NCBI GenBank assembly: GCA_900696495.1
Contig: CAADGI010000021.1
Span: 43,614 to 107,613 of the forward strand
Origin: an uncultured Alphaproteobacteria bacterium
Lineage (GTDB): Bacteria > Pseudomonadota > Alphaproteobacteria > Micavibrionales > Micavibrionaceae
Length of the DNA stretch: 64,000 nucleotides
Direction of reading: 5' to 3'
Shown piece after piece: positions 2,637 through 18,046 of this stretch (position 1 is its first letter; each line of letters begins with the position of its first letter). The notes below the pieces were generated by a model. The model ran no database searches and was not told where the DNA came from. It saw only the letters and a list, made by a program, of their open reading frames with translations. The position numbers and the translations under genes are program-made.

Positions 2637-3596
2637 CTAATCCGAAAGCGCAACCTTCGGAATTTTGCTCAACCTGTGAATCAGCTCATCCAGCTGGTCG
2701 AGCGATTTGAACTGCACGCGCAGCTTGCCCGATTTACCGTCGCGCGTCTCGATCCCGACCTTCATGCCGAGCAAATTCGACAGGTCGTTCTCGAGCGCGA
2801 TCGTATCGACATCCTTGCGCGCGGTATTAAGTTTCTTGCGCAGCGTGCCGCCCTTCTCCGCCGTCAGCGCTTCCGCCTGCCGTACGTTCAGGTTCTTGGT
2901 CACGATCTCGTCCGCCAGAACTTGCGGATTGCTCACCGTCACCAGCGCCCGCGCGTGACCGATCGTCAGCTTCCCTTCACGCAGGTAATCCTGCACACGC
3001 TCGGGCAAAGTCAGCAGACGCACCATGTTGGCGATATGGCTGCGGCTCTTGCCGAGCACCTTGGAAACCTCTTCCTGCGTGCGGTCGAATTCATTCATCA
3101 GGCGGCTGTAACCCATCGCTTCGTCGACGGGGTTGAGGTCCTCGCGCTGCAAATTTTCAACAAGCCCGACTTCCAGCGCCTGCGAATCGTCCAGCGTCGA
3201 GATGATCACCGGCACCTTGTACAAATTCGCCCTCTGCGATGCGCGCCAGCGGCGTTCGCCCGCGATGATTTCGTACTTGCCCGGCTCGCCCTTAAGCGCG
3301 CGCACCAGGATCGGCTGCAACAGCCCATGTTCCTTGATCGAATCCGCCAGCGTGTTCAGCGGCTCTTCCTCGAATGTCATCCGCGGTTGGAACGTACCGG
3401 GCTGAAGCTGGTCGATATCCAGTTCGACGCGGCCCGGCGCGTTGCTGCGCGGCGCAGGCGCGGCGGGCGCCGCGTCATCGTCATTCGCGCGCGGCGCGTT
3501 CTTCTGCTGCGCCAGCGGCTGGTAATCCTCTTCGTCGTCGTCGAACAACGCCGAAAGCCCGCGCCCCAAACCTCTTTTTGTTTCAGTCTTTGCCAT
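2637..3596 (-). CDS. parB: chromosome partitioning protein ParB
   Basis: 319 aa; ParB box IIAGERRWRAS, an HTH region, and position next to parA. Confidence 0.9.
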   Translation of the reverse strand: MAKTETKRGLGRGLSALFDDDEEDYQPLAQQKNAPRANDDDAAPAAPAPRSNAPGRVELDIDQLQPGTFQPRMTFEEEPLNTLADSIKEHGLLQPILVRALKGEPGKYEIIAGERRWRASQRANLYKVPVIISTLDDSQALEVGLVENLQREDLNPVDEAMGYSRLMNEFDRTQEEVSKVLGKSRSHIANMVRLLTLPERVQDYLREGKLTIGHARALVTVSNPQVLADEIVTKNLNVRQAEALTAEKGGTLRKKLNTARKDVDTIALENDLSNLLGMKVGIETRDGKSGKLRVQFKSLDQLDELIHRLSKIPKVALSD

Positions 3597-3723: not shown

Positions 3724-5136
3724 TTACGCCACTTGCGCTGAATCGTCGGCACCTTCATTGGCGGCGGCGATGCTGCGCTCGCGCAAAATCACTTCCTTCG
3801 CCAGCTTGATATAGGCCTGCGCCCCCGCGCATTTCATGTCGTAAACGATCGCGGGCAATCCGAACGACGGCGCTTCCGAAAGCCGGACGTTGCGCGGAAT
3901 GACCGTCTTGTAAACCTTGTCGCCGAAATGGCCGCGTACATCTTCCTCGACCTGCGCCGACAATTTATTTCTGAGGTCGAACATCGTGAGAATGATGCCG
4001 TGAATATCCAGGCCGGGATTGAACGATTTCTGCACGCGCTCGATCGTCTTTACAAGATGGCTCAATCCTTCCAGCGCATAAAACTCGCATTGCAGCGGCA
4101 CCAGGATCGAATCCGCCGCCACCAGCGCATTCAGCGTCAGGAGATTGAGCGACGGCGGGCAGTCGATAATCACATAGTCATAGGGCAGCGGGCGGTGCAG
4201 CGCTTTTTTCAATCTGAATTCGCGGTTGTCGGCGGTGACCAGTTCGATCTCCGCGCCCGACAAATGAATCGATGACGGGATGACCGACAAATTCGGAACG
4301 CGCGTGGTGACGGCGGCCTCGACCATGTCCGCGCCTTCGAACAGCACGTCATATACACTCGTGCGGATCGCGCTGCGGCGGATGCCGAGGCCCGTGCTCG
4401 CATTGCCCTGCGGATCCATGTCGATGATCGCGACGCTTTTGCCGATCGCCGCCAGCGCTGTCGCCAGGTTCACGGCCGTCGTCGTTTTGCCGACGCCGCC
4501 TTTCTGGTTGCAGATGCCGATCAGGCGCGGGCGCTGCTGCGCTCCCGTTTTTTCCGTCGGCGTTTTTCCGGTCAGCGGTTTCTTCGTATAGGTCTTCTGT
4601 CCCGCACCTGCCGCGCCCGTCTTCATCGACAGCGGCGCATCCTGTTTCGCTTCGGCGCGGAAAGTCTCTTCACCCTGCCCCGATGCTTCTTGCTTCGCGA
4701 GTCCTTGTCTTCCCCGCGAGGCGTCCGCTGAAACCCCTTGCCCCGCACGCTCTTCTTGCCTTCCCCGCTCCTCCTCTTGTCTTTCCCGTGCCTCCTCTTG
4801 TCTTCCCCGCGCAGGCGGGGATCCGGCATCTTCTTGTCTCGCGAACCCCTCTTGCTTTCCCCGCACAAACGGGGACCTTAAAACCTCATCCCGGTCCGAA
4901 CCCTCATACATCATCCGCTCCCGCGCGGCCTGGTCGAACGCCGTATTATCAACCTGCCCCTCCAAACCTCTCGCACTCGAAGCACCCTGGGAAGCACCCT
5001 CGGGAGCGCCCTGAGAAGCAGCAACCCCGCCCTCCACATACAATTTTCCATATTGTCCGTCATCCGGATTCCGGCTTTTCTCTGCTTTCGAAAGAAATTC
5101 TTTGAAGGAATATTTTTGAACTGGCTGGTCGCTCAT
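3724..5136 (-). CDS. parA: chromosome partitioning ATPase ParA with a long low-complexity N-terminal extension (start uncertain)
   Basis: C-terminal ~265 aa is canonical ParA/Soj (ICNQKGGVGKTTTAVNLA). MSDQ start at 5136 has GGGGAAG upstream. Alternative starts are 5187 and 4626 (MKTG), the last giving a normal-length ParA. Confidence 0.8.
   Translation of the reverse strand: MSDQPVQKYSFKEFLSKAEKSRNPDDGQYGKLYVEGGVAASQGAPEGASQGASSARGLEGQVDNTAFDQAARERMMYEGSDRDEVLRSPFVRGKQEGFARQEDAGSPPARGRQEEARERQEEERGRQEERAGQGVSADASRGRQGLAKQEASGQGEETFRAEAKQDAPLSMKTGAAGAGQKTYTKKPLTGKTPTEKTGAQQRPRLIGICNQKGGVGKTTTAVNLATALAAIGKSVAIIDMDPQGNASTGLGIRRSAIRTSVYDVLFEGADMVEAAVTTRVPNLSVIPSSIHLSGAEIELVTADNREFRLKKALHRPLPYDYVIIDCPPSLNLLTLNALVAADSILVPLQCEFYALEGLSHLVKTIERVQKSFNPGLDIHGIILTMFDLRNKLSAQVEEDVRGHFGDKVYKTVIPRNVRLSEAPSFGLPAIVYDMKCAGAQAYIKLAKEVILRERSIAAANEGADDSAQVA
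4800..4826. repeat. hairpin repeat unit GTCTTCCCCGCGCAGGCGGGGATCCGG inside the parA 5' extension
   Basis: Matches 9423-9449 at 23 of 27 positions and resembles 2475-2500. Degenerate CTCTTGTCTTCCCCG copies lie around it across 4680-4880. Confidence 0.65.
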
Positions 5137-5229
5137 TGGCTTCCCCACGTGACAGAATTTATATTTGTTATGGTCCCGATACTGCAACGGCTGGAATATA
5201 TCGTCAAGAAAATCTGAAAATTTTTTGAA

Positions 5230-5862
5230 CTAACCGCGGCGGGAAATTTCTAAAATCTTTGCGCCCTCTTCCGTCCGGCTCGGAAAATCCGCGTATTCGA
5301 AACTGAATTTCTTCCGCGCCTCCTCCACTTCCTCCAGCGCCATCCGGCCCTTTAAAAGCAGCAGCGGAACCCCCGGAATAGGCTGGGTCATCTCCAGAAT
5401 TTCGACCAGCGGCGCGAACGCCCGGGCGGTAATAATGTCCGGCCCGATAGACGCCAGAGCATTCTCCGCCCGGTCGTTATGAACCCGGACGACCGACTTT
5501 GTTTCACGTGAAACATTTTTCAGGAACTCGGATTTCCTCAAATCCGATTCGACCAGGTGCATTTCCAGATCGGGCCGCATAATCGCAAGAACCAGCCCCG
5601 GGAACCCGCCCCCGCTTCCCAGATCGGCGACTTTTGCGTTCCGGGGAATACGCTCCGCCAGTTGCGCCGAATCGGCGAAATGCCGCGCCCAGATATCGTC
5701 CAAAGTCCTGGGACTGACGATATTGATTGCCTTCTGCCATTTCACCAGAAGATCATGATAAGCCTGCAAACGCGAAATTGTTTCACGTGAAACACCGAAC
5801 GCCTTGGCGAATTCCTCAGGCGACATTTTTCTTCGGCTGGGCTCTTTTGCCCTTTTTGACAT
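5230..5862 (-). CDS. rsmG: 16S rRNA (guanine527-N7)-methyltransferase RsmG (GidB)
   Basis: SAM motif [12 protein letters not shown]-terminal VSRET..L..Y, and position between mnmG and parA. Start could be 5826 (MSPEEF). Confidence 0.85.
5500..5515. repeat. perfect 16-bp palindrome TGTTTCACGTGAAACA (copy 1, in rsmG)
   Basis: Read directly; encodes VSRET in the rsmG frame. Confidence 0.95.
5779..5794. repeat. perfect 16-bp palindrome TGTTTCACGTGAAACA (copy 2, in rsmG 5' end)
   Basis: Read directly. The 21-nt stretch GAAATTGTTTCACGTGAAACA is identical to copy 3. Confidence 0.95.
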
Positions 5863-7930
5863 GCTTCAGAAGCGCGACCATGGCCGCCGGGGTCACGCCG
5901 GGAATACGCGACGCCGCACCCAAAGTCGCCGGTTGCGCCTGCTGGAGTTTTTGACGGATCTCGTTGGAAAGGCTCCCCACCGCCCCGTAATCCAGATCTT
6001 CCGGAAGCTCCAAGGCCTCATCTTTCCTGAAGGCGATAATATCCGAATCGTGCCGTTCCATATATCCCGAATATAGCGCGTCATATTCCATCTGCTCCCG
6101 GATTTCCGGACGGATGGAATTCAGCTCCGGCCAGACCCCGGAGAGCTGGTCCCAGTCGATATCCGGGTAACCCAAAAGCGCCCCGGCCGAGCGGCGGACC
6201 CCATCTTTATTGACCCCGATCCCATAGTTTTCAAGTTCGTTGGGCGTGGCCCGCAAACCCGCCATAAGCGCCCGCGCCCGCTCCAACGCCTCCGACTTTT
6301 TACCCCAGGCGGCGACCCGGCCGGAACCGACAAACCCGGCCTCGATTCCCCTGCCCGTCAGGCGCTGGTCGGCATTGTCGGCCCGGAGCCGGAGACGGTA
6401 TTCCGCCCGGCTGGTGAACATCCGGTACGGCTCCGGCGCGCCCCTGGTAATAAGGTCGTCGACCAGAACCCCGATATAGGCCTCGGCCCGGTCCAGCGTG
6501 AACGGCGAAATTGTTTCACGTGAAACATCCGACCCCGCCCCGGCCGATTGGCGGGCGGCGTTAAGGCCGGCCATCAACCCCTGGGCGGCAGCCTCCTCAT
6601 ACCCCGTGGTCCCATTGATCTGGCCCGCCAGAAACAGCCCCGGCAACCGGCGGCTTTCCAAAGTCGGCCTCAGGTCGCGCGGATCGCAATAGTCATATTC
6701 AATAGCATATGCCCATTCCCTAATATTTACATATTCCAAACCGGGAATGGTCCGTATGTATGCCTCTTGTACCTCGATGGGCAGCGACGTCGAAATCCCG
6801 TTCGGGTAGACGGTATCATCATCCAGCCCTTCCGGCTCCAGAAAAACCTGGTGCCGCGACTTGTCGGCGAAGCGCGTCACCTTGTCCTCGATCGACGGAC
6901 AATAGCGCGGCCCCGTCCCCGAAATCTGACCGGAATACATGGCCGACCTGTGGATATTATCGCGGATAATTTTATGAGTGTTTTCGTTCGTGTAAGTGAT
7001 ATGGCAGGATATCTGCGGCACACGGATTTTATCGGTCATATAGGAAAACGGCACCGGCGGGTCGTCGCCTTTCTGCTCCTCGAGCGCCGCCCAGTTGATC
7101 GTAGAACCGTCCAGTCGGGCTGGCGTCCCGGTTTTGAGCCGCCCAAGCGGAAATCTAAATCTTTCAAGCGTTAAAGCCATACCGACAGCCGGGGCTTCCC
7201 CAACCCGACCAGCCGGAATCTTTTCCTGTCCGCGGTGGATGACACCCCTCAAAAAAGTGCCCGTTGTCAACACCACAGTCCCACATCTCATGGTACTAAT
7301 TATTTTACATAATGCTTCACCGGGGGCGGGCGGGTTAGGTTGGCCTGGGGGTGAGCCTGAGGGCGAGATAGAGGTGCGAATAGGGCTGCCAGCGCTGTGC
7401 ATAGCTGCGCCGGATTTACCCCCATCCTGTGCATAACTGCCGGGGCCCGCGGAATCGCTGGCGCTGGCACCCGGCGGCCTAGCGCCGGGGAGGGCGGTGA
7501 GAATAGCCGAAAGCCCCTGTACGCGCCCGTCCGCGCCGATCACGATATCTTCGGCGGAGCCTTCCAGAAGCGTCAGATTGGGGTAATCCGCCAGCATCGC
7601 CTGCATGGCGTTGCGGTATAATTTGCGGTCGGCCTGCGCCCGGGGGCCGCGTACGGCCGGGCCTTTCGAGGCATTCAGCATGCGGAACTGTATGCCCGCC
7701 TGGTCGATGATGCGGCCCATGACGCCGTCGAGCGCGTCGATCTCGCGCACCAGATGGCCCTTGCCAAGCCCGCCGATCGCCGGGTTGCAGGACATCGCGC
7801 CGATCGTGGCGAGCTTGTGGGTGAGGAGGGCGGTTTTCGCGCCCGCGCGCGCGGCCGCCGCCGCGGCCTCGCACCCCGCATGCCCGCCGCCCACGACAAT
7901 CACGTCAAAACTGAGCTTTTCCATGTCCAT
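5816..7930 (-). CDS. mnmG: tRNA uridine 5-carboxymethylaminomethyl modification enzyme MnmG (GidA), with an in-frame insertion
   Basis: FAD motif [22 protein letters not shown], and IEYDY. At 704 aa it is about 70-80 aa longer than the usual ~620-630 aa. Confidence 0.9.
6512..6527. repeat. perfect 16-bp palindrome TGTTTCACGTGAAACA (copy 3, in mnmG)
   Basis: Read directly; encodes VSRET within [15 protein letters not shown]. Confidence 0.95.
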
Positions 7931-8228: not shown

Positions 8229-9119
8229 ATGGGCGGCAGAAAAAAGAACCCGGACCTCAAAATAGATATGACAGAGCCTGTCGCGCTGACGGCATTCAAC
8301 CAACACTCCGCCGCGCTGAGGGAGCGCCTGGAAAATCACCGGATCTGGATTGAGAGCAACGGCCTTGCGGGAAGAAATTTCAACGGCACTGACGATAGAG
8401 TTATCGCGAGCCTCGATCTGAACGGCGTTGATTTAAGACGCATGAGGCTTGCCGGAATGGTTTTCGAAAAATGCGACTTCAGAAAAATCAGGCTGGATGA
8501 CGGAAACATCGATGACGCGGTTTTCAGGCACTGCACATTTCGTGATTTCGATGAAAGCCAGAAAAATGCAAAAATTGTCAGCATTAACCGCGTGCGCGCG
8601 AAGCGGGCCCAATTCTTTGGCTGCGACCTGCGCGGCATAAAAGTCAATGACTGCGATTTAGAAGCGGCAAGAATAACAGACTGCCAGTACAACAAGGAGC
8701 AATTCAAATTTTCCTACATCGTCGGCATGCGTGCCGACGGCGTTACCCTGAAGGAAGCGGCGCCTGACAATCTTATGCTTGGCTATAGCGCAAAGCCGGA
8801 ATATCCGTCACTGACCCCGGATAAAAAACTGGTGACGCTTGATTATAAGGGGCGCGGCAACTGCGGGTCCGTATCCGCGGGCCCCGACCATGAACAGCTC
8901 TGCGACATTTCTGCCGAAAAAGCGGCCCCCGAAAAGAAAACCCGCAAAAGCCGTACGCCTCGTGCGGCAGATCCTCTTGCAATGCCTGAAGAAGGCCGCC
9001 GGGCGACGCTCGAACTCGCAGACTGGGAAGATGAACAAGACGTAAGTGAAATCGTAAGCCGTGGACCTCGCCGTGAAGAAGAATTCGGCGATCAGGGTAT
9101 ATCGCTTACGCTGGAATAA
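8229..9119 (+). CDS. pentapeptide-repeat protein (296 aa)
   Basis: GAGGAG RBS at 8217-8222. Central run of A(D/N)LXX-type repeats (LNGVDLRRMRLAGMVFEKCDFRKIRLDDGNIDDAVFRHCTFRDF...). Visibly AT-richer than its neighbours. Confidence 0.7.
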   Translation: MGGRKKNPDLKIDMTEPVALTAFNQHSAALRERLENHRIWIESNGLAGRNFNGTDDRVIASLDLNGVDLRRMRLAGMVFEKCDFRKIRLDDGNIDDAVFRHCTFRDFDESQKNAKIVSINRVRAKRAQFFGCDLRGIKVNDCDLEAARITDCQYNKEQFKFSYIVGMRADGVTLKEAAPDNLMLGYSAKPEYPSLTPDKKLVTLDYKGRGNCGSVSAGPDHEQLCDISAEKAAPEKKTRKSRTPRAADPLAMPEEGRRATLELADWEDEQDVSEIVSRGPRREEEFGDQGISLTLE

Positions 9120-9125
9120 ACGTCG

Positions 9126-10505
9126 TCATTTCCCGATACAGAAATCCTTGAAAATGACGTCGAGCAGATCCTCGACATCGACGCGGCCCGTGATGCGCCC
9201 GACCGCGCGCACCGCAAGGCGAACGTCCTCGGCAGCCAGCTCGGGCAGCGCGGCGGTCTTTGCCCGCATGAGCGAGGCCAGCGCGTCTTCCAGCGCGGCG
9301 CGGTGACGCGCGCGGGTGAGAGACGGCGTCTCACCGGGCTTCAGCAGATTTTGAATTTTTACTGTCAAAGAAGAAACAAGCGTATCAAGATTTATTTCGT
9401 CTTGAACGGAAACATATAAAATGTCATGCCCGCGCAGGCGGACATCCGGTTCTTCTTTTTTTGCCGGACCCCCGCCTGCGCGGGGGCGACGTGTGACCAG
9501 GTCTGATTTATTGACGACGATCAAAGAATTTTCATCGGCGAGTTTGAGCGTCGCGTCGTCGAAATTTTTCGCCGTGCCGTCGAACAGCAGGATTTTGATA
9601 TCGGCCTCGCGCGCGCGGGATAACGCGCGGCGTATGCCTTCCGACTCGATTTTATCGTGACCTTTTTCATTGAGCTGCGCCGGGCGGAGGCCAGCCGTGT
9701 CGGCGAGAACGACGGGATATCCCGCAATATCGAGATGCGCCTCGATCACATCGCGCGTCGTGCCGGCAACGTCTGAGACGATCGCGATGTCGCGCTGCGC
9801 CAGCGCATTGACCAAAGAAGATTTCCCCGCATTCGGCGCGCCGATCACCGCGACATGCACGCCGCCGCGCAATCTCTCGCCGCGCCGGTTGTCGTTCAGG
9901 TGCGCGGAAATTTCCGACGCAATTTGTTCGATGGCGGGCGACGCGCGCAGGGCGATGCCGCCGGGCAAATCGTCATCGGGAAATTCAATTTCCGCCTCAA
10001 GATGCGCGAGAAGTTTTTTGAGTTCGTCCGTCCAGCGCGCATACAAACGCGAAAGCGAACCTTCCATTTGCGCCAGCGCCTGGATTTTCTGCGCGGACGT
10101 TTCGGCGTTGATGAGGTCGGCAACCGCCTCGGCCTCGGTCAGATCCATCTTGCCGTTTTCGAACGCGCGGCGCGTGAATTCGCCGGGCTCCGCGAGGCGG
10201 TGGTTTTTTTGACCGCCCAGCGCCGCGACAAGTGAATCGATCACCGCCCGCCCGCCATGCACGTGATACTCGACGACATCCTCGCCGGTGAAACTTTCCG
10301 GGCCTCTGAACGGCAAAACGACCGCGCGGTCGATGACCGCTTTTGTTTCCGGATCGCGCAAAACGGCCAGAGAGGCCGTACGCGCTACGAATTCTTTTCC
10401 GCTCAATGCTTTAAGTCCAGACCAGGCGTCCTTCCCGGAGACCCTTACAACGGCAATTCCAGACCGCCCGGTCGGTGTCGAAAGCGCGAAAATCGTCTCA
10501 CTCAC
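9126..10505 (-). CDS. mnmE: tRNA modification GTPase MnmE (TrmE)
   Basis: G-domain GAPNAGKSSL and DTAG, NKSDL, and the C-terminal FCIGK signature. Confidence 0.9.
   Translation of the reverse strand: MSETIFALSTPTGRSGIAVVRVSGKDAWSGLKALSGKEFVARTASLAVLRDPETKAVIDRAVVLPFRGPESFTGEDVVEYHVHGGRAVIDSLVAALGGQKNHRLAEPGEFTRRAFENGKMDLTEAEAVADLINAETSAQKIQALAQMEGSLSRLYARWTDELKKLLAHLEAEIEFPDDDLPGGIALRASPAIEQIASEISAHLNDNRRGERLRGGVHVAVIGAPNAGKSSLVNALAQRDIAIVSDVAGTTRDVIEAHLDIAGYPVVLADTAGLRPAQLNEKGHDKIESEGIRRALSRAREADIKILLFDGTAKNFDDATLKLADENSLIVVNKSDLVTRRPRAGGGPAKKEEPDVRLRGHDILYVSVQDEINLDTLVSSLTVKIQNLLKPGETPSLTRARHRAALEDALASLMRAKTAALPELAAEDVRLAVRAVGRITGRVDVEDLLDVIFKDFCIGK
9423..9497. repeat. 75-bp palindromic repeat element inserted in frame in mnmE
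   Basis: Arms GTCATGCCCGCGCAGGCGGACATCCGG and CCGGACCCCCGCCTGCGCGGGGGCGACGTGTGAC, of the same family as 2475-2500 and 4800-4826. Encodes VTRRPRAGGGPAKKEEPDVRLRGHD. Confidence 0.7.
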
Positions 10506-17711: not shown

Positions 17712-18046
17712 ACTAATTAGAAATAGATTTAAAAAAAGGTATTAGATGATAGTAGGCGGTGTGAGTCATGGGGATTGATTCAATCCCGGATTCAGTACAC
17801 AGAATCGCCTGCCAGGAAAGCCACGGATTCCCGGCGATTCCCCGGATTCCATCCCTGATTCCAGACCTTGCCCATTTTTACTTTTGAACAGGGGGATGAC
17901 TGCCCCCGGCCGGCCTGCATGATTTGTTCGTATCTTTATACGTCTCTTTATACCGCCCTGCAGCCTCGATTCCCCCACAGGATTGGGCACAGGGCTATGA
18001 CCCCGATTCATTTTATGTTAGCTATGAAGAGGAAATATAAGGCCGC
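17712..18046. other. candidate chromosomal replication origin (oriC/Cori-like) next to hemE
   Basis: 335-bp intergenic region. AT-rich tract at 17711-17757. Ten GANTC sites in 17763-18009, including four GATTCC at 17826, 17836, 17845 and 17857. 8-1-8 palindrome GGGATTGATTCAATCCC at 17771-17787. Confidence 0.5.

Follow-up and report, generated by a model that had tools for sequence, protein, structure and literature searches.

Why does one perfect 16-bp palindrome, TGTTTCACGTGAAACA, recur three times within 1 kb in the genes of two housekeeping proteins, RsmG and MnmG, and why is it read as VSRET each time? An earlier note on this DNA had described identical palindromes at 5500, 5779, and 6512, and all three were found again as exact copies in the window, that is, the whole 64-kb stretch of DNA analyzed. 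The note had also placed every copy in a minus-strand coding frame that encodes VSRET, and the ORF translations agreed. The two host ORFs, both on the minus strand, overlap each other. Copies and hosts are as follows.

5500..5515, unstranded: predicted parS site 1, exact match inside rsmG; VSRET is RsmG residues 117-121 (NVSRETKS)
5779..5794, unstranded: predicted parS site 2, exact match in the 5' part of rsmG; VSRET is RsmG residues 24-28 (GVSRETIS)
6512..6527, unstranded: predicted parS site 3, exact match inside mnmG; VSRET lies in a variable loop (DVSRETIS)
5230..5862, minus strand: rsmG (gidB), 16S rRNA m7G methyltransferase; Pfam GidB, E = 3e-42; PDB 7CFE, 1JSX, 1XDZ; host of sites 1 and 2
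5816..7930, minus strand: mnmG (gidA), tRNA modification enzyme; Pfam GIDA, E = 1.6e-160; PDB 3CES/3CP2, E = 4e-188; host of site 3

Occurrence of the palindrome in the window and in the genome

The window contained no further match to TGTTTCACGTGAAACA, even when two mismatches were allowed. Dinucleotide-preserving shuffles put the chance expectation at 0.01 matches, and three copies were reached in none of 100 of them, in line with the earlier statement that the recurrence is not accidental. The genome-wide count that had been proposed (2.04 Mb, 25-contig draft) returned the three window copies of the 16-mer and no others. The 14-bp core GTTTCACGTGAAAC occurred five times, at the three window sites and at two extra sites on contigs C8 and C14, and six additional 16-mers in the genome differed from TGTTTCACGTGAAACA by one or two mismatches. 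Copies 2 and 3 share a longer stretch, as had been noticed, but it comprises 23 identical nucleotides (GCGAAATTGTTTCACGTGAAACA) and not 21; this 23-nt identity is limited to the genus.

The palindrome fits the parS consensus and adjoins parAB

The consensus of chromosomal parS, the centromere-like site at which ParB/Spo0J nucleates, is TGTTNCACGTGAAACA (PMC2346475, PMC7022226), and the review among these sources gives the same consensus for most chromosomes (PMC7022226). The three exact copies of TGTTTCACGTGAAACA are 16-bp palindromes that fit it, and crystallographic work on ParB-parS used the consensus site TGTTTCAC-GTGAAACA. Genes for the partner proteins are encoded in the same cluster, in which Pfam domains gave the order mnmE-mnmG-rsmG-parA-parB on one strand.

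2637..3596, minus strand: parB; Pfam ParB_N, HTH_ParB, and ParB_C; predicted binder of the three sites
3724..5187, minus strand: parA; Pfam AAA_31/CbiA/MipZ from residue 221; deviant Walker A motif KGGVGKTT
9126-10505, same strand as mnmG, rsmG, parA, and parB: mnmE

The parB gene is located ~2 kb from the three palindromes, and parA, which encodes a partner ParA of the deviant Walker A type, lies directly upstream of it. Within the parA ORF the core is formed by the last ~270 codons, and a low-complexity N-terminal extension of ~215 amino acids stays open. The best PDB match of the window ParB was the Caulobacter ParB chain 6T1F (E = 8.5e-63, over 208 residues), and the CTP-binding motif GERRWRA is intact. 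The parS-contacting residues were taken from Jalal et al. (Caulobacter ParB-parS structure) and mapped onto the window protein. All mapped contacts are retained, namely Q162, G170, K171, S172, R173, N178, G201, and R204, as would be expected of a cognate chromosomal ParB with its helix-turn-helix domain. The Noc binding site (NBS, TATTTCCCGGGAAATA) is likewise palindromic, 16 bp long, and a target of a ParB-family protein, but each of its half-sites departs from parS at two positions, and the window sequence is that of parS. The window ParB is also of the parS type and unlike Noc: it carries R173 and G201, and at the two variable specificity positions it has M (179) and T (184), without the Noc lysines that would mark a Noc/NBS-type pattern. 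The genome encodes a single canonical ParB; a second, weaker ParB_N match lies on contig C14. A search of the genome for the SMC hinge gave no match; the same search also missed the control, Caulobacter.

We conclude that the three palindromes are almost certainly parS sites of the chromosome and serve this Micavibrio-like alphaproteobacterium as its centromere. This sequence-based assignment draws on consensus identity, the cognate ParAB genes, the retained DNA-contact residues, proximity to the likely origin, rarity in the genome, and conservation at the DNA level at orthologous positions, the last of which are taken up below. A protein-binding site was among the options of the earlier note, and the parS consensus and the presence of parB in the same cluster support it, although the sequence had not been recognized there as a ParB-bound parS. 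As a kind of element it is already known: a canonical origin-proximal parS cluster beside parAB. A literature search combining parS, ParB, and Micavibrio returned no paper.

By analogy with Caulobacter, Bacillus, and others, ParB would bind, spread, and support segregation from these sites. ParB dimers would recognize each 16-bp site through the helix-turn-helix domain, and once CTP is bound at the GERRxRA N-domain, ParB would close as a clamp and slide from the site along the adjacent DNA. With three such loading sites in 1 kb, successive clamps would build up a partition complex over the origin-proximal region. The ParA ATPase encoded by the neighboring gene would carry this complex into the daughter cell, and with it the origin region that has just been replicated.

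The sites lie near a candidate origin

The genes rho, hemH, and hemE occupy 13.5-17.7 kb of the window and are followed by an intergenic gap.

17712..18046, unstranded: candidate replication origin, a 335-bp hemE-adjacent intergenic gap ~11 kb from the predicted parS cluster

The rho-hemH-hemE arrangement is known from Caulobacter as an origin neighborhood. Cumulative GC skew over the 119-kb contig falls to ~10-12 kb of the window, stays flat to ~22 kb, and then rises. The skew minimum and the hemE-adjacent gap, both 5-12 kb from the three palindromes, mark the origin neighborhood, and the parS cluster is therefore likely to lie ~11 kb from the origin, the latter being placed by skew and synteny only. 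Few copies per chromosome near the origin are typical of parS, and the three 16-mers and five cores in 2.04 Mb follow this pattern with respect to the origin so placed.

Closeness to a skew minimum is also what would be seen if the half-site TGTTTCACG were a lineage-specific DnaA box, so that the palindromes belonged to a replication origin and not to a centromere. The Ori-Finder paper (PMC2275245) did propose TGTTTCACG as the DnaA box of Bradyrhizobiaceae, for a palindrome beside gidA at the skew switch. However, TGTTTCACG fits the consensus TTATCCACA at only five of nine positions, the window copies lie within coding sequence, and none occurs in the hemE-adjacent candidate origin gap; apart from these copies, TGTTTCAC occurs once on the contig, at ~27.6 kb of the window. 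Moreover, the identical sequence has been co-crystallized with ParB as its consensus site. The palindromes were accordingly not assigned to the DnaA box class, membership in which we consider extremely improbable, and for Bradyrhizobiaceae the simplest explanation is that a parS was misread.

Conservation of the sites in the order and the class

Of 41 genomes from the same order, 39 had the 14-bp core, in 1-14 copies each, and a reversed control pattern had no occurrence in any of the 41. Among the sites listed, most were situated within a few kb of rsmG, and in the single-contig genome G019 all three core sites were <4 kb from this gene. The synteny of mnmG and rsmG was kept in all 29 complete loci of relatives. 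Site positions were measured from the equivalent of RsmG residue 1. On this scale, the position of site 1 (+347/350 nt) was occupied in 29 of 30 relatives, and that of site 2 carried a parS-like match with no more than two mismatches at ~+68 nt (+62 to +77) in 21 of 30. Site 3 had a counterpart inside mnmG, at -608 to -686, in about half of the relatives. The three sites were thus inherited at orthologous positions and did not arise in three independent events. An N-terminal VSRET in RsmG, which the earlier note had described as common in alphaproteobacteria, was seen in about half of the 30 order relatives and also outside the order, in one or more further families of the class.

In a sample of 300 other alphaproteobacterial genomes, 31 had a core site with a Phe codon four codons upstream. 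Twelve such loci were examined, and rsmG lay alongside in 10. The site was found at the homologous mid-RsmG position in four of the 12, one had the N-terminal RsmG site as well (LTDVSRETLERL), and two had a site at a third RsmG position. Embedding of parS in rsmG therefore recurs across the class, by common ancestry or by convergence.

A flank logo of 117 distinct sites showed 85% A at the 16th position and no preference past it. A site longer than 16 bp was rejected on this basis; the conserved unit is a 16-bp DNA site.

The same set of sites bears on the RNA hairpin within the mnmG-rsmG-parAB transcript that the earlier note had suggested; such hairpins might, for instance, affect processing or stability of the transcript. 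A stem of 6 bp closed by a 4-nt loop is possible in each copy, and local folding energies range from -8 to -14.5 kcal/mol. Yet a stem of 6 bp is short, and the z-scores are only -1.5 to -2.4. The sequence is invariant over the 117 distinct sites, with no compensatory changes, where a hairpin would call for covariation. In Caulobacterales the same 16-mer probably lies in intergenic DNA upstream of mnmG, and it is used on either strand relative to genes. The hairpin proposal was abandoned as very unlikely.

Constraint on DNA and the VSRET reading

At the mid-RsmG column, VSRET was present in 28 of 30 relatives. This would also fit a peptide motif with a function in RsmG and MnmG, in which case the DNA would be identical only because the protein is conserved. 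The codons speak against this. Exactly GTT TCA CGT GAA ACA was used in 24 of the 28, although the five codons have 2- to 6-fold degeneracy, and the codon frequencies elsewhere in these genes would give this series in 0.16% of VSRET peptides. In addition, the equivalent residues are VQHEL in RsmG of Escherichia coli and LSEAL in that of Bacillus subtilis, and the MnmG site is missing in half of the relatives. At the 3' end of folK and the 5' end of cca, VSRET occurs only where the core palindrome does. A peptide motif is thus scarcely credible as the cause of the conservation, and the parS reading accounts for it.

Codons flanking the site drift freely among relatives (e.g. AAA AAT, CGC ACT, TTG GTG), and where a site has been lost its codons have drifted as well, to GTC TCT CCT GAA ATT in one relative and GTT TCT GAG GAG ACG in another. 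Because the site codons are invariant while the flanking codons drift, the constraint lies on the DNA and not on the protein. The earlier note had held that its proposals would fail if VSRET were ancestral at all three positions with unrelated codon usage in relatives, and if the palindrome were not enriched genome-wide. VSRET is indeed ancestral at the RsmG positions, but the codons of the relatives are identical and not unrelated, which indicates a function at the DNA level. Conservation as DNA whatever the coding context, as expected of parS, is likewise reflected in the 16-bp limit of the site and in its positions outside rsmG in Caulobacterales.

The uniform reading as VSRET follows from the palindrome itself and from descent. 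The frame from the first base (TGT TTC ACG TGA) contains a stop and, because the sequence is palindromic, is stopped on both strands. Two open frames are left, VSRET and FHVK, and both are used among relatives. Across the loci, 90 sites read VSRET, 17 read FHVK, and 9 lie outside long ORFs, counts that are biased by orthology and by the VSRET-compatible pattern used at the class level and that serve here only as proof that either open frame occurs. Thus, the copies always read VSRET because one frame holds TGA and because the sites were inherited and are not independent. Both extra core sites of the genome also read VSRET, one at the 3' end of folK (…EKVSRETGAHG*) and the other at the 5' end of cca, a gene of the CCA-adding/poly(A)-polymerase family (MVSRETSK…).

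Accommodation of the sites in RsmG and MnmG

The two RsmG copies fall on surface helices and the MnmG copy falls in a variable loop, and VSRET is tolerated at all three places. Alignment of orthologues, which had been proposed along with the genome-wide count, gave different results for the two proteins. In RsmG, site 1 aligned without gaps (NVSRET versus QVQHEL in E. coli and KLSEAL in B. subtilis), as did the N-terminal site with ISLSPRQL of B. subtilis RsmG. Because of this gap-free alignment to solved RsmG proteins, both RsmG copies are substitutions at tolerant positions and not insertions. The MnmG segment, which had been described as slightly longer than in the E. coli enzyme, is indeed longer by 9 residues (SAD------KEGWAP---ARSQAY in E. 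coli), the difference being split over two gaps that surround the site. In relatives without site 3 the loop has 4-5 fewer residues, and locus L016, from a relative in another family of the order, carries four in-frame parS-like sites there (MVSRESIEGSTGGSVSRESIGEVKPVSRESNSEVRSRLVSRETAKTF). The loop is thus a permissive, indel-prone place where sites were added.

The longer MnmG loop, the four copies in one relative, and the 23 nt common to copies 2 and 3 could also be taken as signs that the copies belong to a small REP- or MITE-like palindrome that is mobile, inserts in frame, and is tolerated; the earlier note had suggested a mobile palindrome of this kind. Such an element is hard to reconcile with three exact copies (five of the core) in the genome at positions fixed across the order, with gap-free RsmG copies, and with flanks that show neither conserved sequence past 16 bp nor a target-site duplication. 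Of that suggestion, in-frame tolerance was retained for MnmG and mobility was dropped; the REP/MITE-like class was rejected, and we assign it next to no probability. The preferred reading remains that of parS sites, some of them added in the MnmG loop.

Comparison with known ParABS systems

The closest counterpart is the ParABS system of Caulobacter crescentus (Toro 2008, Tran 2017, Jalal 2020), with which the window shares the 16-bp consensus. In both, several parS sites (predicted ones in the window) lie within a few kb of each other, ~8-11 kb from a hemE-adjacent origin (~8 kb from ori in Caulobacter), and adjoin the mnmG-rsmG-parAB cluster; the DNA-contact residues of ParB are identical. 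The window differs from this system in that all three sites match the consensus perfectly and all lie within the coding sequences of rsmG and mnmG. In the Caulobacterales loci sampled, parS lay upstream of rsmG, at ~1.9-2.4 kb from its start and thus close to the 5' end of mnmG or beyond it, and none of these loci had parS inside rsmG.

The palindrome is also that of parS/Spo0J of B. subtilis (Lin and Grossman 1998) and of mycobacterial parS. B. subtilis has 10 parS sites over a larger ori domain. Intragenic parS has been documented at the 5' end of gidB in Mycobacterium smegmatis and within parA in Mycobacterium bovis BCG, but the intragenic positions of the B. subtilis and mycobacterial sites are not homologous to those in the window.

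Implications for the organism and its order

The cluster mainly aids annotation: in this uncultured, predatory alphaproteobacterium it would mark the centromere and, in combination with GC skew and the hemE gap, also the origin region. The parS reading also explains a "conserved motif," VSRET, that might have passed for a functional signature of RsmG. The mildly new aspect is the imprint of a centromere on two housekeeping proteins, RsmG and MnmG; a literature search on VSRET gave nothing relevant and no description of such an imprint. Synonymous recoding of the sites would offer a simple separation-of-function route to ParB nucleation or to the interplay of ParB with transcription.

We consider it rather probable that the Micavibrio-like order, like some other families of alphaproteobacteria, has its centromere embedded in the coding sequence of housekeeping proteins, so that selection on the number and position of parS sites shapes the sequence and length of RsmG and MnmG. 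If so, two parS sites would have held the same RsmG codon positions through the history of the order, fixing VSRET, and the MnmG surface loop would be an expandable in-frame landing pad that holds 0, 1, or up to 4 parS-like sites depending on the lineage. ParB clamps that load within the operon could then also couple assembly of the partition complex to transcription of mnmG-rsmG-parAB. As a side result, the sites are a clear example of overlapping codes: five RsmG codons are fixed across the order by a DNA-binding site, and additional copies of this site are accommodated in a permissive loop of MnmG.

Identity between the parS copies in rsmG and mnmG

Comparison of parS copy 2 in rsmG (window 5772-5794) with copy 3 in mnmG (6505-6527) revealed 23 identical nucleotides, consisting of GCGAAATT plus the parS site, and the shared stretch was translated as VSRETIS in both RsmG and MnmG. 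The identity extending beyond the site was restricted to this genus, where four genomes carried it, and was absent from other genera. It may represent a short gene-conversion tract between both sites, or it may be due to chance (about 4e-4 post hoc).

Copy 3 lies in a variable loop of MnmG. In G034, a relative from the same order and another family, this loop (locus L016:2730-2880) harbored four in-frame parS-like sites, compared with one in the window. These were spaced 33-39 nt apart; three were of the TGATTCACGTGAAAC type and read as VSRES, and one was read as VSRET. The four sites made the MnmG of G034 ~30 residues longer.

Other features of the par locus and the genome

Three further features were recorded in the window:
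4540-5187, minus strand, extension of the parA open reading frame
7290-7510, minus strand, insertion in MnmG
8229-9119, plus strand, gene for a pentapeptide-repeat protein

The parA frame was open across ~215 codons upstream of the ATPase core, encoding low-complexity charged repeats of the RGRQEE/GKQEG type; without this open extension, the gap between rsmG and parA would be 650 bp. The MnmG insertion comprised ~74 residues rich in Pro, Gly, Ser, and Ala (amino acids ~140-213) and was located between two blocks aligning to residues 157 and 166 of E. coli MnmG. The genes mnmG and mnmE are neighbors as a rule; here, the pentapeptide-repeat protein gene was situated between them on the opposite strand.

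Elsewhere in the draft genome, the perfect 14-bp parS core occurred at two additional places, on contigs C8 (36621-36636) and C14 (353833-353848). One was found within the final codons of folK (HPPK), directly ahead of folP, and the other in a gene for a PolyA_pol/CCA-adding enzyme, where it probably coincides with the gene start (ATG GTT TCA CGT GAA ACG). The genome contained five core sites, as did each of three genomes of the same genus. A second protein with a ParB_N domain was encoded on contig C14 (3593-3847), outside the par locus, in a 476-amino acid open frame with a weaker match (44.6 bits).

Relation to a proposed DnaA box

The Ori-Finder study of 2008 (PMC2275245) noted that the palindrome TGTTTCACGTGAAACA adjoins gidA (mnmG) and on that basis put forward TGTTTCACG as a species-specific DnaA box for Bradyrhizobiaceae. 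The DnaA box proposed for this family looks like parS taken for DnaA boxes.
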